From positions 65,223 through 129,222 of IMG/VR virus record IMGVR_UViG_3300042905_003904: DNA of 64,000 nt; one strand, given 5' to 3'. The stretch comes from a virus. The position numbers were made by a program, and so were the translations under genes. The notes beneath the pieces were generated by a model. It was not told where the DNA came from and did no database searches. It saw only the letters and a program-made list of their open reading frames with translations. Of this stretch, positions 38,765 through 62,597 are shown piece after piece (within the stretch, counting starts at the first letter, position 1; each line of letters opens with the position of its first letter).

Positions 38765-38858
38765 TGGCGACCAGCTAAGGTGTCGATCCCTAACCCAAGT
38801 CTTAGTTGGGTCCACCTCGCTTCAAACGAGAGGTCATCGCCGGATGACTTAACTGGCC
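38765..38858 (-). tRNA. tRNA-Ser(TGA), 8/4 type
   Basis: GGCCAGTT/AGCTGGTC, loop TTTGAAG, long V-arm, G73, CCA. Confidence 0.85.
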
Positions 38859-40243: not shown

Positions 40244-40318
40244 TGGTAACCCTACCCAAAATTGCATTGGGACTTAATCCTTAGGAGGGAATCGTGATGT
40301 CTATTTCACTATAGGGTT
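40244..40318 (-). tRNA. tRNA-Arg(CCT)
   Basis: AACCCTA/TAGGGTT, loop CTCCTAA, CCA. Confidence 0.85.
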
Positions 40319-40327
40319 ATTAAAGAG

Positions 40328-40399
40328 TGTTCCATCCAGGAATTGCACCTGGAATAAGATTTCCGCAAAATCTCGTGATGTCTATTTCACTAATGGAAC
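40328..40399 (-). tRNA. tRNA-Arg(GCG)
   Basis: GTTCCAT/ATGGAAC, loop TTGCGGA, no encoded CCA. Confidence 0.85.
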
Positions 40400-40404
40400 T
40401 AAAA

Positions 40405-40485
40405 TGGTATTCGCGATAGGGGTCGAACCTATATATTATCCAGTTAACCTTTTTACTCGTTAGAAGCGAGAGGGTATACGCGAAC
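40405..40485 (-). tRNA. atypical tRNA-Arg(TCT), no D-arm in the normal position
   Basis: GTTCGCG/CGCGAAT, loop CTTCTAA, T-loop TTCGACC, CCA. Confidence 0.75.
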
Positions 40486-40491
40486 ATTAAA

Positions 40492-40567
40492 TGGAAATCC
40501 GGGTGATATTTGCAATCACTATTAGCTATTTTGCAGATAGCCACCGATCTACTTTGGCTTCCGGATT
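40492..40567 (-). tRNA. tRNA-Cys(GCA)
   Basis: AATCCGG/CCGGATT, loop CTGCAAA, U73, CCA. Confidence 0.85.
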
Positions 40568-40572
40568 ATAAA

Positions 40573-40668
40573 TGGCAGTGAGCAGAGTATTTGCAACCCA
40601 ACCCAAGTCTTAGTTGGATCCACATACTTTCCAGGTATGGCCGATATCGCTGGTTCGGTTTACTCACT
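40573..40668 (-). tRNA. tRNA-Ser(GGA), 8/4 type
   Basis: AGTGAGTA/TGCTCACT, loop CTGGAAA, long V-arm, G73, CCA. Confidence 0.85.
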
Positions 40669-40675
40669 ATTAAAT

Positions 40676-40750
40676 TGGTCCCAATATCCGGACATGCACC
40701 GGCTTCACAGACTTATGAAATCTGGGTTTTACTATATAAACTATACTGGG
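40676..40750 (-). tRNA. tRNA-Met or Ile2 (CAT)
   Basis: CCCAGTA/TATTGGG, loop TTCATAA, CCA. Confidence 0.8.
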
Positions 40751-40761
40751 TCTTAAAATTG

Positions 40762-41229
40762 TCAATCTTGATATTCAATGATATAAGTGGAATTTCGGGT
40801 GTGAATTAAGGTTTTTTCTTCGTTCGTGCTCATAATACTAGAAGAACAGAAGTGACCGTGATCTAATACGATAGCGCCACCAACTTTTAGTGGGGAGGTT
40901 AATTTGCCTTTGTGTATACTTTTTACACCCAATTTAATTACTCGAACTCTTTTATCCCAAACTTCTCCCTTCAGATTCAAAGTGGTAACCATACCACCCA
41001 TGGAGATATTCCTGCCGTGATAATATTCAATTTCCTCCGGATTCAAATCTCGAGTGGTTGCTTTGGGAAAACGAACATCTATAAACCCTATCCCATAAAC
41101 CCAGGCACCATAAAAGTTTTCTTCGTCCTCTTTATAGACACTGCAAATATCTGGAGTGTCATTACTAATGTCACCAAGACCATGAAACGCTTTGGTGGCG
41201 AGTTTGTAAATGGATTTGAATTCTTTCAT
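40762..41229 (-). CDS. hypothetical protein within the tRNA array
   Basis: 155-aa ORF ending TRNSTY. Confidence 0.65.
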   Translation of the reverse strand: MKEFKSIYKLATKAFHGLGDISNDTPDICSVYKEDEENFYGAWVYGIGFIDVRFPKATTRDLNPEEIEYYHGRNISMGGMVTTLNLKGEVWDKRVRVIKLGVKSIHKGKLTSPLKVGGAIVLDHGHFCSSSIMSTNEEKTLIHTRNSTYIIEYQD

Positions 41230-41277
41230 GTTTCTATATTAGAATGGATTTGAAGGAAAGACCAGAAAAAGAAAGAG

Positions 41278-41368
41278 AGGTTCGCTAAGCTGCCGCCGCT
41301 TAACCCAAGTCTTAGTTGGATCCAGGAATTTAGCAAATTCCGTTCATCACTGGATGAATTAACGAACC
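41278..41368 (-). tRNA. tRNA-Ser(GCT), 8/4 type
   Basis: GGTTCGTT/AGCGAACC, loop TTGCTAA, long V-arm, no CCA. Confidence 0.85.
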
Positions 41369-41375
41369 ATGAAAG

Positions 41376-41449
41376 TGGGGCCGAGAACCAAAATTGCATT
41401 GGTATCATCTATATTACGAGTATAGGGTTTTGCATTAAACTATCTCGGC
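41376..41449 (-). tRNA. tRNA-Thr(CGT)
   Basis: GCCGAGA/TCTCGGC, loop CTCGTAA, CCA. Confidence 0.85.
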
Positions 41450-41453
41450 ATGG

Positions 41454-41558
41454 GAATACTGAATTGTGCGAAGCAGCGGGACTGCTCTGGGCGTTTATGA
41501 CTAGTCGTCCAGTCACCGCTATTCACGCGACCGAATTTCTTCGCACAATTCAATACTC
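41454..41558 (-). ncRNA. candidate ~105-nt RNA with 20-bp closing stem
   Basis: GAGTATTGAATTGTGCGAAG/CTTCGCACAATTCAGTATTC. Confidence 0.55.
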
Positions 41559-41608
41559 ATTGTTTAAATATTATCTGTTAGTTTTAGGGAATTGCAACTA
41601 ATTTAAAA

Positions 41609-41703
41609 TGGCGGCTAACGGAGTGGATGCTACCCAACCTAGTAGTGAACTAGATCCAACTATTTTCGAAATAGTGTCAGCTCGCTTGTCTGATTCATTA
41701 GCC
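41609..41703 (-). tRNA. tRNA-Ser(CGA), 8/4 type
   Basis: GGCTAATG/CGTTAGCC, loop TTCGAAA, long V-arm, G73, CCA. Confidence 0.85.
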
Positions 41704-41709
41704 ATTAAA

Positions 41710-41784
41710 TGGTAGTCGGGGAGAATTTCGCAATCTCAATCTTGGCATTCAGAGTGCCCTGCGTTACTTTTACGCCACCCGACA
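41710..41784 (-). tRNA. tRNA-Gln(CTG)
   Basis: TGTCGGG/CCCGACT, loop CTCTGAA, CCA. Confidence 0.85.
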
Positions 41785-41791
41785 ATTAAAA

Positions 41792-41877
41792 TGGAGCCTG
41801 ATGAGGGACTTGCACCCCCGGTGAGATTTCTCTACATGATTACAAATCACGTCCTATCGCTACTAAGGGAATCAGGC
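41792..41877 (-). tRNA. tRNA-Thr(TGT) with long variable arm
   Basis: GCCTGAT/ATCAGGC, stem CGTGA/TCATG, loop TTTGTAA, CCA. Confidence 0.8.
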
Positions 41878-41897
41878 ATTTTGAAATTTATTTGAAA

Positions 41898-41975
41898 TGG
41901 CATCGTCTGAGGCTCTTGCGGCCTCTAGGTCTACTTTGAGGGAGTAGTTACTCGAGCTACTTTGTATTAGACGAC
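41898..41975 (-). tRNA. tRNA-Glu(CTC)
   Basis: GTCGTCT/AGACGAT, loop CCCTCAA (C33), CCA. Confidence 0.8.
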
Positions 41976-42161
41976 ATTGTATTGTGCAGTTACATTCTCG
42001 GCAATAATCTTGGCTGCCTTGAGGTGAAGATCTAGGGGAATCAAATTCTTTAAATCCGCAAATAACATTTCTGCTAGACCACAAAAATCGTGGTAGTTGG
42101 CTCCTTCTGCTTCTTCGGAGGCTTTACGTAAAATTTCATCGATCTTGTTTTGAAGTTTCAT
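41967..42161 (-). CDS. hypothetical protein within the tRNA array
   Basis: 64-aa ORF; stop lies inside the tRNA-Glu 5' end. Confidence 0.55.
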   Translation of the reverse strand: MKLQNKIDEILRKASEEAEGANYHDFCGLAEMLFADLKNLIPLDLHLKAAKIIAENVTAQYNVV

Positions 42162-42170
42162 GAGATGATT

Positions 42171-42431
42171 TTAACTACGAGTTTTCTGGAATTCTCTTAG
42201 TTTTTCTAAATCATCCCCTTCATAAAAATCTGGAATACCGCTTGCTGGATATCCGCCGCATCTACCACAAGATAAACAAGTTCCGGCTCCTCTAATGGTT
42301 CCTACTTCACCATTATGATTGATTACTAAATTAGAACGTTCTCCATCACAGTTATCACAAGAGAACATGCTTCTTTCAGTGATAATAGAAACATAGGCTT
42401 CGGAAAGTAGTTGGGTATCTTTGTCGTTCAT
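42171..42431 (-). CDS. small Cys-rich protein
   Basis: MNDKDTQLLSEAY...CDNC...CLSCGRC; TAAATA upstream. Confidence 0.6.
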   Translation of the reverse strand: MNDKDTQLLSEAYVSIITERSMFSCDNCDGERSNLVINHNGEVGTIRGAGTCLSCGRCGGYPASGIPDFYEGDDLEKLREFQKTRS

Positions 42432-42450
42432 ACGAGTATTTAGGTTAAAG

Positions 42451-42525
42451 TGGCTGGGAATCCGGCGTTTGCATCCGGTTTTAAAGTTTTTCAAACTTTC
42501 ACACTACGTCATGTGTTAATTCCCA
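42451..42525 (-). tRNA. tRNA-Phe(GAA)
   Basis: TGGGAAT/ATTCCCA, loop TTGAAAA, CCA. Confidence 0.8.
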
Positions 42526-42534
42526 ATTAAAAAG

Positions 42535-42608
42535 TGCTAGAGGGGTGTGCTGCCCACTCCTTCCTTCGACTTATCAAGTCGGTGCATATGCTGTTTTGCT
42601 TCTCTAGC
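42535..42608 (-). tRNA. tRNA-Ile(GAT)
   Basis: GCTAGAG/CTCTAGC, loop TTGATAA, irregular T-arm, no CCA. Confidence 0.75.
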
Positions 42609-42619
42609 GTTTGAAAATA

Positions 42620-42691
42620 TTCGCCATGTTCGTGCTGCCCGAACTACTCCCAGTATGTCGAACTAGGTTTCTGCTGTTGAATTAATGGCGA
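42620..42691 (-). tRNA. tRNA-Val(GAC)
   Basis: TCGCCAT/ATGGCGA, loop TCGACAT (C33), no CCA. Confidence 0.8.
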
Positions 42692-42761
42692 GTGAAATTG
42701 GCCTGCGAATTTTAACACCCCTTGCAGGTCGGGCTACGTGCTGAACGTGTTCTTAAGAAAG

Positions 42762-42835
42762 TGGAGCCCAATCCCGGTAACTCTCCGGATTTTCACCATT
42801 ACCAATGGCGTGTATTAATTTTATACGAATCGGGC
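42762..42835 (-). tRNA. tRNA-Thr(GGT)
   Basis: GCCCGAT/ATTGGGC, loop TTGGTAA, CCA. Confidence 0.85.
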
Positions 42836-42844
42836 TTTAAAACG

Positions 42845-42916
42845 TAGTCCCGGAAAATTTTGCAATTTCAACCTTCTCTGTGTAAAAGAGTTGCTCCACT
42901 TTTGAGCTACGGGACC
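42845..42916 (-). tRNA. tRNA-Val(TAC)
   Basis: GGTCCCG/CGGGACT, loop TTTACAC, no CCA. Confidence 0.85.
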
Positions 42917-42928
42917 ATTAAATTAAAG

Positions 42929-43004
42929 CGCTGCTGGAAAGAATTGCACTCTCATAAATCCTACTTCGAAGGTAGGTGCCTGGGTCTGTTCGAGCCACAG
43001 CAGC
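42929..43004 (-). tRNA. tRNA-Arg(TCG)
   Basis: GCTGCTG/CAGCAGC, loop CTTCGAA, no CCA. Confidence 0.85.
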
Positions 43005-43019
43005 ATTATTAAAAATTAA

Positions 43020-43126
43020 TTCCACTTTATGAAGCCAGTCTCCCTCGCAGGATAAGCACTCTTCATAAACAAACACCAAACGTAAACGATTTATAGGGTT
43101 TTGACACCAGTGCAAGTGTAGTGGAA
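43020..43126 (-). ncRNA. candidate ~107-nt RNA
   Basis: Closed by TTCCACT/AGTGGAA; inner TTTATGAAG/CTTCATAAA. Confidence 0.45.
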
Positions 43127-43129
43127 ATA

Positions 43130-43204
43130 TGGAAGGCGTTATCGGTATTGCGCCGATTTATCTAACTTGGCAAGCTAGTGCATCACTTTTTATGCTTAAC
43201 ACCC
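43130..43204 (-). tRNA. tRNA-Gly(GCC)
   Basis: GGGTGTT/AACGCCT, loop TTGCCAA, U73, CCA. Confidence 0.85.
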
Positions 43205-43213
43205 ATTAAAAAT

Positions 43214-43720
43214 TTATCCCATAGTAGCAAATATATCATTTTGGATACCCTGAAGGTTTACTGCTATGTGCGGATATAAAGAAATTTCATTTGTTTTAAT
43301 GTCCTTCAAATAAATATTGGATTTTAAACAATTAGCAGGATCCTGAAACATATTTGTTGTATTTTTTAATGTTAACGGTTTATCTTTACAAAGCGTCCAG
43401 TCATGTTTATAAAAACAATCATGAGTCGGGGCTGGAATCCTAATACTACCACAACTGTTAAAGGTTACTACGGTTTTCGCTATGTCATCCAATTCTAGGA
43501 ATTTAACAAAGAACAATTTTCTTGGTAAATTTTGCACATGAATAATATGCCAATCAGAATTGAATTCGGTCTGATAATCTTTCAATGTGTCTTTATCCAT
43601 AGGAAATGTATGGAAACATTCATAATCAAACCGAACGACAGTATCCGTTGATTTACCTTTAATCTTCCACAGATAATCTTGGCGATTATATATGGTTTCC
43701 AATGAATGAATAATTCTCAT
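43214..43720 (-). CDS. hypothetical AT-rich protein within the tRNA array
   Basis: 168-aa ORF. Confidence 0.55.
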   Translation of the reverse strand: MRIIHSLETIYNRQDYLWKIKGKSTDTVVRFDYECFHTFPMDKDTLKDYQTEFNSDWHIIHVQNLPRKLFFVKFLELDDIAKTVVTFNSCGSIRIPAPTHDCFYKHDWTLCKDKPLTLKNTTNMFQDPANCLKSNIYLKDIKTNEISLYPHIAVNLQGIQNDIFATMG

Positions 43721-44015
43721 AAATTGATGTTACTATTATTTGTTCGGAATAGCACTCTCAACTTTAGAAAAACACCTCCACAAATTAGGCTTAGTAAAAG
43801 AGGCCTGCATGGTCTGGCGAAAATATAAGCTCCCATGATTTACAACCTTTGGGTATTAGTATCTGGAACGGTTATGCAGATCTGCTTAAAGGGTATCATC
43901 CTTGGGATTTTTACCCAACCACCATAAGATATCATTAGGTGTTTCTAGCACACATTCCAGGCTCATCTAGACTCATAGGATTGGATAAGATTTCGGGCTG
44001 ATGTTATTTTGAAAA

Positions 44016-44090
44016 TGGCTCCCACCCAACGATTCGAACGTTGCTCACACGAGTTAACAGCTCGGCCGCACACCTAGTGCGTTGACGGGA
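44016..44090 (-). tRNA. tRNA-Asn(GTT)
   Basis: TCCCGTC/GGTGGGA, loop CTGTTAA, TTCGAAT, G73, CCA. Confidence 0.9.
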
Positions 44091-44098
44091 TTTGAAAT

Positions 44099-44172
44099 TG
44101 GCACCCCATTCGGAGCTCTCATCCGATATTCTTGCGTGACAAGCAAGTATGATAATCATTCATCAATGGGGT
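44099..44172 (-). tRNA. tRNA-Asp(GTC)
   Basis: ACCCCAT/ATGGGGT, loop TTGTCAC, G73, CCA. Confidence 0.85.
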
Positions 44173-44179
44173 ATTAAAT

Positions 44180-44256
44180 TGGTCCGAAAGGTAGGCGCTT
44201 CCCCTACATATATCCGCACATCAAGCGGGTCCTTTATATTTCTCAGGCACTCTCGG
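44180..44256 (-). tRNA. tRNA with GAT anticodon (Ile?), atypical
   Basis: CCGAGAG/CTTTCGG, loop TTGATGT (G37), CCA. Confidence 0.7.
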
Positions 44257-44265
44257 TTTGTAAAT

Positions 44266-44357
44266 TGGTAGAAGGTGTCGGTAACGCTCCGACTCGAGGC
44301 CCACATCTAGGGCGAAACGGGGTATAAAACCGTCTTGGCTACTTAGCACAACCTTCC
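44266..44357 (-). tRNA. tRNA with TAT anticodon (Ile?) and long variable arm
   Basis: GGAAGGT/ACCTTCT, loop TTTATAC, V-arm GCCC/GGGC, CCA. Confidence 0.7.
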
Positions 44358-44366
44358 ATTGAAATA

Positions 44367-44444
44367 TGGGGTAAACGACCGCATCTGCCGCGGCTATAAC
44401 TCCGGTTCACAGCCGGATCCCTATCTACTTTGGGTTCGTCTACC
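44367..44444 (-). tRNA. tRNA-His(GTG)
   Basis: G-1:C73, GTAGACG/CGTTTAC, loop CTGTGAA, CCA. Confidence 0.9.
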
Positions 44445-44453
44445 ATTTGAAAT

Positions 44454-44840
44454 TGGCCGTTTGTGGACTTCAACCACTTCCCGGATAACGGTTTTAATCC
44501 GGTTTCAGTTCTCATAGGTTTGCGGCCCGAAGCTGCCTGAAATTTAAGCCAGTTACTCGAGCTCCCTATTTGCGGCACTTAACCGTCAAGTTTAGTGGAC
44601 TCCGCCATTTGGGGACCTGTTTCGCTGACACCACCAAATTGACGTTCGGTGGAAATTAATTACCAAAGAAACCCCTCATTCTGAACTGGAAGCTACGACA
44701 TCTTCAAGAGACGTTTCCAGTGACACGGGGTTCTTTGGCTTCTATCTATGGATGTCAAATTATATCCGTTTGTGCTTCCTCTTACACTAAGTCTCCTGAT
44801 TGATTTCAGAAGCGCCGGTCCTTGAACCCGAACTAAACGG
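44454..44840 (-). ncRNA. ~390-nt structured non-coding block (one or several RNAs)
   Basis: Long hairpin 44663-44738; 3' end GTGG-TTGAAGT-CCAC-AAACGG-CCA; 5' CCGTTT. Confidence 0.5.
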
Positions 44841-44844
44841 AAAT

Positions 44845-44919
44845 TGGCACGCGCTGATCTGCTTGCAAGATCCCACGACCTTTTGGAGAGGTTGTCGCCA
44901 CTATGGAACATGAGCGCGT
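44845..44919 (-). tRNA. tRNA-Trp(CCA)
   Basis: ACGCGCT/AGCGCGT, loop CTCCAAA, G73, CCA. Confidence 0.85.
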
Positions 44920-44925
44920 ATGAAA

Positions 44926-45000
44926 TGGTAGCCCCACCTGGTAACCCTCCAGGTTCTATGGTTTCAAAGACCACTGCATTTAGTTCTATGCTATGGGGCA
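44926..45000 (-). tRNA. tRNA-Gln(TTG)
   Basis: TGCCCCA/TGGGGCT, loop CTTTGAA, CCA. Confidence 0.85.
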
Positions 45001-45009
45001 ATTATAAAA

Positions 45010-45086
45010 TGGTGAGCTCCCAGGGTATCGCGCCCTGCATCTCCAATTTAAAAGATTGGTGCATACTCTATGGCAGCTTGGAGCCC
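45010..45086 (-). tRNA. tRNA-Lys(TTT)
   Basis: GGGCTCC/GGAGCTC, loop CTTTTAA, CCA. Confidence 0.85.
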
Positions 45087-45093
45087 ATAAAAT

Positions 45094-45167
45094 TGGTGAG
45101 TCGTCCTGGTAATTCTCCAGGTTCTTCTGTTTAAGAGACAGGGGCCTTAATTTTAGGCGAACAACCC
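45094..45167 (-). tRNA. tRNA-Lys(CTT)
   Basis: GGGTTGT/ACGACTC, loop CTCTTAA, CCA. Confidence 0.85.
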
Positions 45168-45180
45168 ATATTGAAATTAA

Positions 45181-45264
45181 TCGTATACTCCGGTGTTGCT
45201 CCGAGCGTAATCTTTCGATATCTAGATCCCAAATCTAGCGGGGTCTCTGGCTCCCTCGTATACG
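45181..45264 (-). tRNA. tRNA-Pro(TGG) with long variable arm
   Basis: CGTATAC/GTATACG, loop TTTGGGA, V-arm ATC-GAAA-GAT, no CCA. Confidence 0.8.
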
Positions 45265-45274
45265 TTTTATAAAT

Positions 45275-45359
45275 TGGTAGTCCCGACAGGCATCGAACCT
45301 GCAAGCATTTCTGCGTAAGTTTCTAAAACTTATATGTTTGCCAATTTCATCACAGGACC
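45275..45359 (-). tRNA. tRNA-Leu(TAG)
   Basis: GGTCCTG/CGGGACT, loop TTTAGAA, V-arm, CCA. Confidence 0.9.
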
Positions 45360-45368
45360 ATTAAATAG

Positions 45369-45451
45369 TGTCGATAGTTGGAGTTGCACCAACACGCCCT
45401 TTCGGACAAAAGTTTTTAAGACTTTCATGGCTTCTGTTACATCATACCGAC
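45369..45451 (-). tRNA. tRNA-Leu(TAA)
   Basis: GTCGGTA/TATCGAC, loop CTTAAAA, V-arm, no CCA. Confidence 0.85.
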
Positions 45452-45459
45452 TTTGAAAT

Positions 45460-45543
45460 TGGTCCTCATAGTAGAAATTGCATCTACACTCCCGAAGGAA
45501 CTTGTTTTTGAGACAAGCGCGGCTGCTGTTACGCCATATGAGG
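45460..45543 (-). tRNA. tRNA-Leu(CAA)
   Basis: CCTCATA/TATGAGG, loop CTCAAAA, V-arm, CCA. Confidence 0.85.
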
Positions 45544-45556
45544 TTTATTGAAATTT

Positions 45557-45724
45557 CTCAAATACCACCTCATCCGTTTGCGATCGGATACTACACACTA
45601 AACCAGCCCGGTTCGTGCTTCGGCAGTTTTCCCTATTTGGGCTCCTACTAACCCCGGCAGGTAATTAGTAGATCTTTGAGGTAGACCCCCGCGTCTGTTA
45701 TTGCGCCAGCAGATGGCATTTGAA
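45557..45724 (-). ncRNA. candidate ~168-nt RNA
   Basis: 14-bp closing stem TTCAAATGCCATCT/AGGTGGTATTTGAG. Confidence 0.5.
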
Positions 45725-45729
45725 ATTAA

Positions 45730-45800
45730 TTCAGTGGTTCGATGCTGCAGGAGTGCCTGGGCTGAATCGATTGACTTCTAGTTCCTGGCGAAACACTGAA
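45730..45800 (-). ncRNA. candidate ~71-nt RNA
   Basis: Closed by TTCAGTG/CACTGAA; inner TTCG/CGAA and CAGGA/TCCTG. Confidence 0.4.
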
Positions 45801-45802
45801 AT

Positions 45803-45880
45803 TGGTAGCGTATACCGGTGCTGCCCCGGTTCTAAGTTCTCCTTGAAAGGGAGGGAAGCATGCTGTTGCTCATATACGCC
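45803..45880 (-). tRNA. tRNA-Glu(TTC)
   Basis: GGCGTAT/ATACGCT, loop CTTTCAA, CCA. Confidence 0.85.
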
Positions 45881-45889
45881 ATTTGAAAT

Positions 45890-45986
45890 TGGAGCGATTA
45901 GGGGATTTGCACCCACACCTTTAGTCTAGACGACTACTGTTCTATGAATCCCTAAAGAGGAAATTCTCTAATTAAACTACCCTCGC
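45890..45986 (-). tRNA. aberrant tRNA-like gene (loop CGTCTAG) with a hairpin inserted in the D-loop
   Basis: GCGA/TCGC-T-CCA, T-loop TGCAAAT, weak acceptor stem. Confidence 0.55.
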
Positions 45987-45992
45987 ATTAAA

Positions 45993-46083
45993 TGGTGGGA
46001 GCAAACTGAATCGCACAGTAAGCCTCGACTTCCAATCCTTGGTTAAGGTGCGGTTTTACAGACCGCCGATTGGGGTTACTCCC
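45993..46083 (-). tRNA. atypical tRNA-Tyr(GTA), no D-arm in the normal position
   Basis: GGGAGTA/TGCTCCC, loop CTGTAAA, A73, CCA. Confidence 0.75.
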
Positions 46084-46094
46084 ATTTGAAATTA

Positions 46095-46166
46095 TTGCAG
46101 GTATGGGAATTGCACCCATGCATAACGGCTTATGAGACCGTGGACTTACTACTTGTCGAACCCGCG
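46095..46166 (-). tRNA. tRNA-fMet-like (CAT)
   Basis: CGCGGGT/ACCTGCA with C1:A72 mismatch, loop CTCATAA, no CCA. Confidence 0.85.
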
Positions 46167-46233
46167 ATTTGAAATCATACCCAAATAGATCTCTCAAGTC
46201 TTTTTTAAGGACCATCTATCCAGGTTTTGAAAG

Positions 46234-46318
46234 TTACAGAGGCGGGTATTGATCCACTTTTGGGCATTTGCACCTTCCAGGTTATGGGCCTGGCGAAACA
46301 CGTTTTCTCTACTCTGTT
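46234..46318 (-). tRNA. second initiator-like tRNA (CAT) with extra arm
   Basis: AACAGAG/CTCTGTA 1:72 mismatch, CCAGG-CCCATAA-CCTGG, irregular T-arm. Confidence 0.65.
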
Positions 46319-46330
46319 ATTTAAAGACTA

Positions 46331-46411
46331 TCAAGAAGGTCCGATGCTATTATCATTGCGATTTTATAGAATGGTGATAAAGCCACCCTCATCCGACGAA
46401 ACACTTCCTGA
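46331..46411 (-). ncRNA. candidate ~80-nt RNA
   Basis: Closed by TCAGGAAG/CTTCTTGA. Confidence 0.35.
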
Positions 46412-46428
46412 ATCTGTATAAATTGAAG

Positions 46429-46502
46429 TGGAATATCTGGGTTACGCTCCCAGTTCTGCGCATTGCAAGTGCACCGTGTTACCTATTAATCACTAATACC
46501 CC
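46429..46502 (-). tRNA. tRNA-Ala(TGC)
   Basis: GGGGTAT/ATATTCC with G3:U70, loop CTTGCAA, no CCA. Confidence 0.88.
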
Positions 46503-46520
46503 TTTACTCTATGAAATTTG

Positions 46521-46635
46521 TTTGGTGTGAAATTTTACCCGCGATTATTTTCCAGCTTTGCGATAACCCCTTAGATTAGACCCTCAGGGAAAGGCGGTTC
46601 CTTCAACATCGCAAAGGTCCTTTATAGGCACCAAA
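46521..46635 (-). ncRNA. candidate ~115-nt RNA
   Basis: TTTGGTG/CACCAAA closing stem; inner CTTTGCGAT/ATCGCAAAG. Confidence 0.45.
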
Positions 46636-46639
46636 TTAT

Positions 46640-46749
46640 TTTCCTGAAAGTGTTTGTGGACTGCGGGAAACTGCCTCCGCCCGACCTTTGATCACCCAAG
46701 TGGATGAGAAAGAAATTGCATCTTTCGACTCCCAGCCCCTTTCAGGAAA
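46640..46749 (-). ncRNA. candidate ~110-nt RNA
   Basis: 11-bp perfect closing stem TTTCCTGAAAG/CTTTCAGGAAA. Confidence 0.5.
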
Positions 46750-46750
46750 T

Positions 46751-47059
46751 TGGGCAGGATTTGTTCCCATTACTTCCAGGGTCAGCTTTTAGCCTGCGGA
46801 GCTGTGCTTCTTTCGAAATCGTCTAATTTTAACACGCAGACTAGAAACTGCGAAGTCTTTGGGAGGCTTTCATAATCTGCCGGTTCACCATTCCGGACTG
46901 ACGAATTATGTTTTGCTGATTACGCTTTGCGGGCTTCTCTCAGATACAATCTTTTGTTCTGGAGTGATTGAACTCCAGTATCTTTATGCGCTATTAGAGC
47001 ACACTATCGAGGAGAGTAATACATTTATCCCCGTTTCTACATCTGCCCGTTTCACAGGC
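46751..47059 (-). ncRNA. candidate ~300-nt multi-hairpin RNA
   Basis: GGGCAG/CTGCCC long-range pairing; hairpins CTGGAGT/ACTCCAG, CATAAT/ATTATG, CGCAG/CTGCG. Confidence 0.45.
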
Positions 47060-47072
47060 ATACTAGAGAAAA

Positions 47073-47147
47073 TGGAGCGACATGTGGGTAACCCACCCAC
47101 TTAAACCTGTTTGGAAAACAGGTGCATCAGTTTTCTGCCAATGTCGC
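47073..47147 (-). tRNA. tRNA-Gly(TCC)
   Basis: GCGACAT/ATGTCGC, loop TTTCCAA, U73, CCA. Confidence 0.88.
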
Positions 47148-47323: not shown

Positions 47324-47359
47324 TATCATTTTAACCTACTATATTACTTAAACTTCCTC

Positions 47360-47495
47360 CGCAAATTGAGGTGTGCTTGCTTACACTACATAGTAGAACT
47401 ACTACATCACTTACCATTCCGTTCTGGTGCCTACGTGCTGTAGGATCGCTTTTTATGTGGTTTGTAGCACCACTGAATGCATTTTTAAATTTGCG
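47360..47495 (-). ncRNA. candidate ~135-nt RNA, first unit after the attenuator
   Basis: Closed by CGCAAATT/AATTTGCG. Confidence 0.3.
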
Positions 47496-61000: not shown

Positions 61001-61417
61001 TTAACGGATTTTAACTTCGATATCTGGGATGATCGTGGATGGACGAAACACGACACGATAGTGAAACGGGGAGGCCTTTACAGAATCAAGCTGTTCGCAG
61101 AACCAGGTTACATTGTCCGAGATTCCAAGGTAGTGCTTTTTATATTCCTTCGGACCAGTCTTTACGATCACGGACAGTTTCTGGTCTGGCTCTACGACAA
61201 CAGATAATAACCCCTCGATGGTCAAAATATACTCACTAGTGATTCCATTGTAAAAGACCACCCTTCGGTTCACCTCGAAGTTGTGGGCTGCTTGCGAGAC
61301 ATTATAGGCGGCGACTTCGGATTCTTGTTGGCAAGATGAAAGTCCAAGGGCGACTGCAAGGATGATGTATTTCAGTGTTTGTTTCAATGTTTGTTTCATA
61401 TTAGATTGTTGGTTCAA
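61001..61417 (-). CDS. phage lipoprotein
   Basis: Lipobox LSSC; NFEVNRRVVFYNGIT...YKKHYLGISDNVT. Confidence 0.75.
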   Translation of the reverse strand: MNQQSNMKQTLKQTLKYIILAVALGLSSCQQESEVAAYNVSQAAHNFEVNRRVVFYNGITSEYILTIEGLLSVVVEPDQKLSVIVKTGPKEYKKHYLGISDNVTWFCEQLDSVKASPFHYRVVFRPSTIIPDIEVKIR

Positions 61418-62597
61418 AAACTTGACCGCTTCCGATGGCCTTGTCGTTCATGGCATTATTAAAGTCAAACCGGGCATAGTTTGGAATCCCATAGCCAGTG
61501 AATCCGTTATACTGAACCGTTACCAATTTCCCAACCAACTTGGATGGGTTATTCCAGGCCCAGGTGGCTTGCTCTCGGGTTCCTTTAAATGTGCCGCCAA
61601 ATTCATGAGTCAGCACTCCATCTACCATGACAGGCTTCTTGAGTTGGAAATCGATTCGCTTACAGGCCCCTGCCCAGTTTCCTTTGCATTCGTGAAGCTT
61701 GAGGATGATAAATTCAGCATCATCTGTTGGCTTCAATTTAATCATCTTTTTAGTTCGCTTGTGTTCATACTTCATATCAGCATATCTCACAATAGCTCCT
61801 TCGTGTTTATCCGCAATCAAATCTTCATAGATAGCCCACACCTCTTCTTCTGTATTACACTTGGTAGTTGGGACTACCTCCAACGCATCTGGAAGAGAAT
61901 TGGCTAGTTCATCCAAATAATGTTTGCGGTTGGCATAAGGAACACTTTCATCCATTCCATAAAACCCATAACCATCATAAAGAGCCAGACGGATTAGTTG
62001 CTTACTCTTGGCTAGAATCTCTGGAGTCACATGAGTATTCTTCCGAAGAATTCGCATGATTTCATTCAATTGCTGCCGAAGAGCCGCGTTGTATCCCTCC
62101 CCGTCCAAAACAGCATCAGGCCATTTCTCGAAAAACGGTTCCAGCGCCTTGAGAATATGCGGTAGCACTTCATATTTTTCTCCCTTGCTGGTAAAGGCTC
62201 CATGACGAGTAATGACCACCCTTCCGCCATTAAATTTATTTTGGACTAAACAAGGGAGCTGAATACCTTTCTTTACATCTTTTAGAGGAGTGGCTAACAT
62301 TGGTTCAACAAAGTAGAAATTATCCACGTCCTTCACATTCTCAAAGTAACCTGTCTTAGCCTTCTTATCCCACTTGGATTGAGCTTCTAGACGAGCCTGC
62401 TCTTCTCCAGTAGTTTCATTGGCCCTACCGATGTTCTTCCCCTTGCAGATAGTAGGTTTGCTGCTGGTGGTCTTACCAGTGACTCGTCCGGATTCCGTCC
62501 AGAACATATTATCCTTAACATTCACGCGCCAAATCTGTAAGGCACCTGTGGAGGTTCGAGAATAAAGTGGCGGAAGGAGAAATGGTGTATTAGGCAT
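61401..62597 (-). CDS. lig: ATP-dependent DNA ligase
   Basis: PMLA, QNKFNGGR, LDGEGY, EGAIVR, KLKPTDDAEF. Confidence 0.88.
   Translation of the reverse strand: MPNTPFLLPPLYSRTSTGALQIWRVNVKDNMFWTESGRVTGKTTSSKPTICKGKNIGRANETTGEEQARLEAQSKWDKKAKTGYFENVKDVDNFYFVEPMLATPLKDVKKGIQLPCLVQNKFNGGRVVITRHGAFTSKGEKYEVLPHILKALEPFFEKWPDAVLDGEGYNAALRQQLNEIMRILRKNTHVTPEILAKSKQLIRLALYDGYGFYGMDESVPYANRKHYLDELANSLPDALEVVPTTKCNTEEEVWAIYEDLIADKHEGAIVRYADMKYEHKRTKKMIKLKPTDDAEFIILKLHECKGNWAGACKRIDFQLKKPVMVDGVLTHEFGGTFKGTREQATWAWNNPSKLVGKLVTVQYNGFTGYGIPNYARFDFNNAMNDKAIGSGQVFEPTI

Follow-up and report, generated by a model that had tools for sequence, protein, structure and literature searches.

Passages of two reviews describe G18 and U55 of transfer RNA (tRNA) as virtually universal, and they call pseudouridine 55 universally conserved and G18 and G19 conserved (PMC4810234, PMC7912444). 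How, then, is a tRNA elbow built when these residues are replaced in most members of a large tRNA set? The question is raised by a tRNA array in the IMG/VR virus record IMGVR_UViG_3300042905_003904, of which we analysed 64,000 nucleotides (nt), positions 65,223 to 129,222 (the window). The array (40247..47147) comprises 38 tRNA-like genes, all on the minus strand, 35 of which carry G55 in the T-loop. Judging from the sequences, we put at about 0.8 the probability that these are working tRNA genes with an elbow mostly built from a different, already known, version of the T-loop.

The tRNA array and its elbow nucleotides

When a tRNA-Ser(TGA) gene lying outside the array is included (38768..38858, minus strand; canonical type, with GG in the D-loop and T-loop ATCGACA carrying U55 and C56), the window holds 39 tRNA-like genes which cover all 20 amino acids and constitute a complete decoding set. 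G55 occurs in 35 of the 39 and the four U55 genes are Leu-TAG, Asn-GTT, Ser-TGA and an irregular unit at 40408-40485. The initial annotation of this DNA had claimed that most T-loops carry G55 rather than U55, quoting the strings TGCAA, AGCGT, GGCAG and CGCAA; all four strings were found and the predominance of G55 is stronger than had been stated.

Positions in the T-loop were read directly from the T-stem and, since D-loop lengths vary, residues 18 and 19 were set by rule. Among the 29 well-parsed window tRNAs, residues 18/55 are A/G in 25, which bears out the earlier statement that AG stands in place of GG in the D-loops of G55 tRNAs; they are G/U in two (Leu-TAG and Asn-GTT), C/G in Phe and U/G in Thr-CGT, and the assigned residue 18 is A in 25 of the 27 G55 tRNAs. 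Residues 19/56 are G/C in 23, U/A in 4 and C/G in 2, and are thus Watson-Crick partners in 29/29. In a control where T-loops were permuted among the tRNAs and the same 18/19 rule was re-applied over 5000 rounds, the mean was 21.4 and the maximum 27, with 0/5000 reaching 29. A fixed residue-19 column of the model alignment pairs with residue 56 in only 56% of rows, because the model alignment shifts short D-loops. As the fixed column misplaces residue 19, we relied on assignment by rule, controlled by shuffling, and on alignment-free tests that score GG as present or absent in the D-loop and are independent of the 18/19 rule.

The commonest string at positions 54-58 is TGCAA and the others are TGCGA, CGCAA, GGCAG, AGCGT, AGCAA, AGAGT, AGAAT, AGGGT, TGGGT, TGAGA, GGAAG and TGCAT, with TTCGA confined to Leu-TAG and Asn-GTT. 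Loops of the form U/C-G-N-R-A (TGCAA, TGCGA, TGAGA, CGCAA) account for 16/29 and those of the form G-G-N-A-G, which resemble a ribosomal RNA (rRNA) type, for 5/29, the rest being A-G-N-R-U together with a few others that are odd. A purine stands at position 57 in 29/29, C56 and G19 are missing in 6/29 and the U54/A58 pair in 14/29. Reading GCAA as a GNRA tetraloop was considered and dropped as a general description, given that AGCGT, GGCAG and AGAGT do not fit it.

The exchanges at 19-56 fall exactly where the initial annotation had placed A56 with a D-loop AT and G56 with a D-loop AC (D-loop and T-loop are given in that order, all on the minus strand). U19-A56 is found in precisely Lys-CTT (45097..45167; AAAATTA, AGAATTA, with A18, G55 and A54/U58), Thr-GGT (42765..42835; AAAATTA, AGAGTTA), Asp-GTC (44102..44172; ATGATTA, TGAGAGC) and the second Ile-GAT (44183..44256; AGAAATATA, GGAAGCG, containing the rRNA-like GGAAG), and C19-G56 in precisely Gln-TTG (44929..45000; AGAACTAA, AGGGTTA) and Gly-TCC (47076..47147; AAAACTG, TGGGTTA). 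Canonical elbows occur in Leu-TAG (45278..45359; AATTGGCAA, TTCGATG) and Asn-GTT (44019..44090; CTAGGTG, TTCGAAT). The further claim that the few tRNAs with U55-C56 keep GG holds for Asn, Leu-TAG and Ser-TGA, with the correction that Ser-TGA lies outside the array to which it had been assigned. Ala-TGC (46429..46502; TTAATAGGTA, AGCGTAA) is the sole window G55 tRNA with GG also in its D-loop, and other tRNAs of the altered type include His-GTG (44370..44444; AAGTAGAT, GGCAGAT) and Arg-CCT (AATAGACA, TGCAATT).

Several features make the array genes look functional. Standard pairs make up 92.2% of cells in the 29 strong matches, as compared with 47.5% after shuffling and 36-42% with slid partners; by stem the values are 99.0% (acceptor), 87.0% (D), 94.5% (anticodon) and 96.6% (T), and changes on both sides occur in all 21 stem pairs. 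Ala-TGC has G3:U70 and His-GTG an encoded G-1 opposite C73, and discriminator bases fit what we take to be the Escherichia coli rules in about 22/29. It is because the cloverleaf pairing, these two identity features and mostly bacterial-type discriminators are kept that the genes appear functional. CCA is encoded in 20 of the 29 and missing in 9, and in the related phages introduced below it is encoded in nearly all tRNAs. The G53-C61 pair closing the T-stem is usually strictly conserved; here it is G-C in 19/29, another pair in 7 and unpaired in 3. U at anticodon-loop position 33 is near-universal, and C33 replaces it in Val-GAC (42620-42691, loop TCGACAT) and Glu-CTC (41901-41975, loop CCCTCAA), both on the minus strand. 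Long variable arms of 12-22 nt are present on tRNAs other than Leu, Ser and Tyr, both in the window (minus strand: Thr-TGT, 41795-41877; Pro-TGG, 45181-45264; Ile-TAT, 44269-44357) and in relatives (Asn-GTT, L126:1582-1671; Lys-TTT, L134:11306-11391; Ile-TAT, L134:11404-11486).

Standard programs recover a minority of these genes. ARAGORN reports 10 tRNAs in the window, 9 of them within the interval, Rfam reports 10 in the window at gathering score and 15 in E-value mode, and a cloverleaf scan of our own gave 26 in the interval, one of them doubtful. The RF00005 threshold of 29 bits is reached by 14 of about 38 interval genes and the others were found only with R1, a covariance model that was built from 110 tRNAs of the window phage and its relatives. 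At E<=1e-5, R1 gives 29 matches in the window, on the minus strand only; at E<=1 it gives 40 on the minus strand, two of them doubtful (46234-46317 and 47336-47395), and five weak ones on the plus strand (E 0.6-0.94). The count of 39 includes a Tyr-like unit (45997-46083) that no method other than an acceptor/T-arm scan detected. About two thirds of genes of this kind escape the standard tRNA finders, and phage tRNA counts are underestimated as a result.

Most of the tRNAs are separated only by the spacer (N)CCA-ATTTCAAA(T), which runs straight into the next tRNA. The same spacer is common to the window and the contigs L005, L069, L121, L126, L128, L131-L134 and L136, and occurs in phages whose terminases are only 44% identical; it may be a processing signal, in an RNase E or RNase P context or for a phage enzyme. 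The array also contains a few small open reading frames (ORFs) and several non-coding gaps of 260-570 nt (minus strand: 46503-47076, 45544-45806, 44444-44848 and 43721-44019), the first carrying a T-arm-like hairpin with loop TGCAATT. Neither the tRNA model nor Rfam (E<1) matched the gaps, and nothing similar was found in relatives except one 30-base match upstream of the array; they are reminiscent of the stable RNAs, of unknown function, that phage T5 has in its tRNA region. Three units on the minus strand are irregular. In that at 40408-40485 the acceptor stem is perfect, the T-loop (TTCGACC) canonical and CCA present; this unit lacks a normal D-arm and has a long arm whose loop is CTTCTAA (anticodon TCT), and a stretch with GG stands at the place of the variable region. 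The Tyr-like unit at 45997-46083 has a G55 T-loop, the anticodon loop CTGTAAA and a D region that is very short, its anticodon and T arms lying about 29 nt apart, and the unit at 45892-45978 has a G55 T-loop and an insertion after the D-arm. No suppressor anticodon was found among the parsed window tRNAs, and an alternative genetic code is accordingly not indicated.

Covariation in related phages and recurrence elsewhere

A first DNA pattern, TGCAA N15 CCAWTTTYAAA, gave mostly chance matches and only L005 proved truly related. A two-spacer pattern retrieved 19 loci, ten of them viral contigs with same-spacer arrays; the matches L122-125, L127, L129, L130 and L135 were dropped as tandem repeats or chance hits, and L120, with tRNAs none of which has G55 and with an AGT anticodon, may not be a close relative. 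In the window and the ten contigs R1 found 264 matches, of which 221 passed the filters (7-nt loops, >=18/21 pairs, D-loop of 5-12 nt) and 43 were dropped, leaving 160 unique sequences. Among the filter-passing window tRNAs 26/28 have G55.

The 19-56 covariation that had been proposed was set in advance as a test in related phage tRNAs, and it was upheld: the two residues are Watson-Crick partners in 159/160 unique tRNAs, with a shuffle mean of 148.5, a maximum of 155 and 0/5000 shuffles reaching 159. By type, 19/56 is G/C in 146, A/U in 6, U/A in 5, C/G in 2 and A/A in 1. Residues 18/55 are G/U in 85, A/G in 69 and otherwise in 6, residue 18 as assigned is A in 69 of the 72 G55 tRNAs across the clade, and the mixed states G18/G55 or A18/U55 amount to at most 2/160. 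The alignment-free tests agree. Among C56 tRNAs, the D-loop has GG in 80/80 with U55 and 1/66 with G55 (Fisher 3e-41), and the dinucleotide RG is present in 144/146 tRNAs with C56 and 1/14 with another base at 56 (3e-16). Residues 54/58 are also patterned (U/A 117, A/U 22, G/G 10, C/A 9, U/U 2).

Orthologous tRNAs can differ in elbow type. Glu-TTC has D-loop ACGGAAGGCTA (..AAGG..) and T-loop TTCGACC in L121, as against ACGATCAGTTA (..TCAG..) and GGCAGCG in L126, with identical D and T stems in the two. A switch is likewise seen for Phe (D-loop ATCTGGAGA versus ATCTAGAGA), for Trp between the window and L005, and for Asn between L069 and L005.

The share of G55 in the related contigs is 21-53%, and in two complete relatives with terminal repeats, of 224.7 and 184.5 kilobases (kb), it is 13/32 and 12/31. 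Within one array of these relatives G55 and U55 tRNAs mostly serve different anticodons, and either elbow type is the only phage tRNA for most anticodons. Both types must therefore work in one host cell. Elbow types are conserved between phages with terminases only 44% identical. Anticodons with A34 (Leu-AAG and Arg-ACG) were noted among the relatives L121, L126, L133, L139 and L140.

The linkage of A18 with G55 recurs in unrelated viral contigs. A generic pattern of a G55 T-arm followed by CCA occurs at >=122 places in >=120 other viral loci and, among the pattern matches listed, 25 fold as cloverleaves, of which 20 have AG and no GG. From the matches listed, 22 loci (21 contigs), none with the clade spacer, formed a replication set for R1, and here GG is present in the D-loop of 102/103 unique C56 tRNAs with U55 and of 5/38 with G55 (1e-25). 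Because these loci were picked for their G55 T-arm alone and not for the D-loop, and lack the clade spacer, the 18-55 linkage is independently replicated.

Two cultured phages yield little of this type. Phage T5 has G55 in 0/21 R1 matches and 0/25 annotated tRNAs, and the Ochrobactrum phage vB_OspM_OC (MT028491) has it in 1/23, a tRNA-Ala with T-loop GGCGGAA (L141:10727-10799). This gene is about 85% identical to the window tRNA-Ala and the terminases of the two phages are only 30% identical, which suggests that single tRNA genes may be transferred between phages. U56 with a GA D-loop is present in T5 tRNA-Ile(GAU) and in four vB_OspM_OC tRNAs, and on this basis 19-56 swaps appear sporadic elsewhere.

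The proposed elbow and why it may have changed

Passages of a preprint (bioRxiv 10.1101/2022.12.26.521914) treat the T-loop as a general five-nucleotide motif, in which UUCRA is the tRNA type, GGAAG a type of rRNA and CGNRA a further class. For the T-loops of flavin mononucleotide (FMN) and cobalamin riboswitches they give the consensus (YGNRA)NY, best (UGHAA)UU; in 99.96% of FMN riboswitches an adenosine is the residue intercalated between loop positions 4 and 5, and it is joined by two hydrogen bonds to G2 at its sugar edge. TGCAATT, the commonest window loop, is (UGCAA)UU exactly, and CGCAA and GGCAG/GGAAG are also present in the window.

By analogy, the joint change at 18-55 can be read as the exchange of one known form of the motif for another, with the 19-56 pair kept. 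In canonical tRNA, U54-U55-C56-R57-A58 receives G18, and here mostly U-G-C-A-A, or otherwise C-G-C-A-A, G-G-C-A-G or A-G-C-R-U, would receive A18. The latter would intercalate between loop positions 4 and 5 and bond with the position-2 G at its sugar edge, and residue 56 would still pair with residue 19 in Watson-Crick fashion whichever the bases. The L-shape and the flat outer platform of 19-56 would be retained, given that the pairing scheme matches that of the FMN/cobalamin riboswitch T-loops. We infer the A18-G55 geometry, as well as the expression, charging and use of the tRNAs. The initial annotation had proposed that the L-shape is kept with changed contacts, and this part of its interpretation stands: the few intermediates, the four types of 19-56 pair and the intact, covarying cloverleaf argue for selection on the tertiary contacts and not for decay. 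A G55/A18 sequence rules out pseudouridine 55 and 2'-O-methylguanosine 18 (Gm18), and A, G or C at position 54 rules out 5-methyluridine 54 (m5U54) on the many tRNAs concerned. The initial annotation had also suggested that the change might serve to evade nucleases or toxins that recognise the elbow, or to do without TruB, TrmA or TrmH; either advantage is conjectural.

The window is the second half of a 129-kb record with an estimated completeness of 61%, and its source is a myovirus-like, T4-like lake-water phage. The gene content includes tail sheath, large terminase, ribonucleotide reductase, PhoH, DNA ligase and a CCA-adding enzyme; terminases of T4-like cyanophages and of Rhizobium phages share 30-35% identity with that of the window, and no cultured relative close at the DNA level was found. 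Identical DNA is present in lake-water metagenomes. Contigs from four such runs match the array with zero differences and no variants were seen, so that sequencing error or assembly artefact was rejected as the origin of the odd loops. One run, which may be the source, holds the whole stretch as a single piece.

Some other genes of the window may be relevant to the array. The tRNA nucleotidyltransferase, or CCA-adding enzyme, is encoded by the phage itself (29917..31338, plus strand) and has no match in the two complete relatives nor in vB_OspM_OC. On the minus strand, a protein of the cytidine/dCMP-deaminase family (PF00383, 33373-33780) could be a dCMP deaminase or a TadA-like tRNA deaminase, and RNA or nucleotide-modification functions are hinted at by a HAD domain of the 'Swiss Army Knife' RNA-repair type (PF18143, 59550-60110), a QueD-like 6-pyruvoyl-tetrahydropterin synthase (PF01242, 32670-33083) and a SLOG-family protein (PF10686, 56091-56612). 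The ligase (61401-62597) is a DNA ligase and not an RNA ligase. Pfam and PHROG scans of about 50 ORFs in the window revealed no tRNA-modifying enzyme or tRNase, and a 237-amino-acid protein adjoining the array retrieved no related viral loci.

As to why the elbow changed, we tentatively suggest, at somewhat less than even odds, that an elbow of UGNRA with A folds well without modifications and would be close to neutral, or slightly favoured, in tRNAs produced in a burst during infection; the window lineage would then have drifted, or been pushed, furthest along a modification-independent route. Several points weigh against this explanation and against the proposed elbow itself. Near-neutrality leaves unexplained the absence of G55 from T5 and its rarity in vB_OspM_OC (1/23), and also the avoidance of G55 by cellular tRNAs. 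Positions 18 and 19 were assigned by rule, Phe and Thr-CGT have no purine at the assigned position 18, and the Ala D-loop keeps AGG. Because the tRNAs are inter-related and many rows are orthologues, the Fisher P values reflect fewer independent events than they suggest. For loops with A54...U58 (AGCGT, AGCAT, AGAGT) no precedent was found in the literature consulted, and for the yeast tRNA SUP4oc 45/47 variants in conserved tertiary pairs are given as non-functional in part of one study (PMC4117946).

An escape from attack is also conceivable, if unlikely: the altered elbow may be a poor substrate for a host nuclease or toxin recognising either the T-psi-C loop or the elbow at G18-G19, and a full resistant set would sustain translation once host tRNAs had been destroyed. 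The completeness of the set and its conversion to about 90% (35/39) fit such a role, and the changed feature, being universal, suits a threat to all tRNAs better than anticodon-specific nucleases. There are partial parallels in the literature, since available passages report that phage tRNAs evade anticodon nucleases through loop mutations (PMC10264068) and that a tRNase cuts inside the T-loop (PMC9086364). The RNA-repair-type HAD protein, the CCA-adding enzyme without a match in the complete relatives, which fits a threat to a universal tRNA feature, the lack of encoded CCA in 9/29 genes and the absence of G55 elbows from T5 also count in its favour. However, the complete relatives keep 19/32 and 19/31 canonical tRNAs (about 60%) in the same arrays, which would still be vulnerable, elbow type is stable in each tRNA lineage with no rapid turnover, the neighbouring ligase joins DNA and not RNA, and no elbow-reading nuclease has been identified for the host of this phage.

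Somewhat more doubtful is a broader proposal in which the A18/G55 elbow would serve as a self-mark against a pan-tRNA attack on the canonical T-psi-C/GG elbow, whether by host defence or by phage shutoff, the array providing a complete orthogonal elbow-rewired tRNA set serviced by the phage CCA-adding enzyme. If true, this would open a new axis in the phage-host tRNA arms race, one that concerns the tRNA body and not the anticodon loop. We consider it improbable that a phage enzyme, either the CCA-adding enzyme or a host-shutoff tRNase, tells the elbow types apart and services or spares the phage tRNAs. The enzyme without a counterpart in two complete relatives or vB_OspM_OC does coincide with encoded CCA being missing in 9/29 window tRNAs, as compared with its presence in nearly all tRNAs of the relatives, but the correlation has n=1; enzymes that add CCA are widespread among phages whose tRNAs are ordinary (504 phage records match) and no phage tRNase was seen among the roughly 50 window ORFs scanned.

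That the genes are decaying pseudogenes, or tRNA-like decoys no longer used in translation, is very improbable. In its favour, standard finders do miss most of them in the interval (ARAGORN 9, Rfam 14 at gathering score), the units 45892-45978, 45997-46083 (Tyr-like) and 40408-40485 (no normal D-arm) are irregular, 10/29 have something other than G53-C61 and two have C33. Against it, 87-99% of cells in the stems are paired and each pair shows compensatory changes, the loop partners covary, identity elements are kept with all 20 amino acids represented, the types are conserved across phages with terminases only 44% identical, and for most anticodons of G55 tRNAs in relatives the phage has no second tRNA.

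Comparison with known systems

In a literature search conducted mostly outside subscription journals and supplements, no description was found of phage tRNAs with G55/A18. They apparently form a general, undescribed class of phage tRNA, and not a curiosity of one genome, because the linkage recurs in unrelated viral contigs; the window phage is the most extreme example so far. The textbook invariants G18, pseudouridine 55 and G19-C56 have in effect been put through a large natural compensatory-mutation experiment, and a T-loop contact of riboswitch type can probably replace that of tRNA type across a complete decoding set. The rewired set must work with the ribosome, RNase P, EF-Tu and synthetases of a bacterial host. 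It offers natural sequences for asking what pseudouridine 55, m5U54 and Gm18 do, and candidate tRNA scaffolds that are independent of all three.

Canonical tRNAs (RF00005, and the 25 of T5) share with those of the window phage the same cloverleaf, 7-nt anticodon and T-loops and a mostly encoded CCA, as well as the same bacterial-type identity elements and clustered arrays. They differ in that G18 and U55 are swapped for A18 and G55 in 35/39 window genes, where C56, G19, U54, A58 and G53-C61 also vary; T5 tRNAs have U55 in 25/25 and C56 in 24/25. Exchange of G19-C56 for A19-U56, with U55 and G18 kept, is known from T5 tRNA-Ile(GAU) and vB_OspM_OC and is seen in the relatives too. The swaps in T5 and vB_OspM_OC affect single tRNAs without an 18-55 change, whereas U19-A56 and C19-G56 in the window come with A18/G55.

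There is a structural likeness to the contact in FMN and cobalamin riboswitches, which has the same (UGCAA)UU and CGCAA loops, a 7-nt terminal loop, a purine at position 4 and an adenosine beside the position-2 G, the place that A18 would take as intercalator in the window tRNAs. It differs in that loop position 3 of the window tRNAs forms a Watson-Crick pair with D-loop residue 19, whereas the riboswitch contact shows little base-pair preference, and the likeness is one of working and not of shared ancestry.

Phage tRNAs that evade anticodon nucleases, as described in parts of van den Berg et al. 2023 (PMC10264068), also depart from the host at a site read by a protein. That study concerns the anticodon loops of particular tRNAs, and its main text makes no use of the terms T-loop, D-loop, T-arm or elbow. 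Metazoan mitochondrial tRNAs, in another compact genetic system, likewise depart from G18, G19, U55 and C56, and passages of one review state that they lose elbow contacts and that RNase P and the L1 region of the ribosome co-evolved with them (PMC4810234). In the window phage, by contrast, the contacts covary and appear to be kept, and the partners of the tRNAs are those of an ordinary bacterial host.

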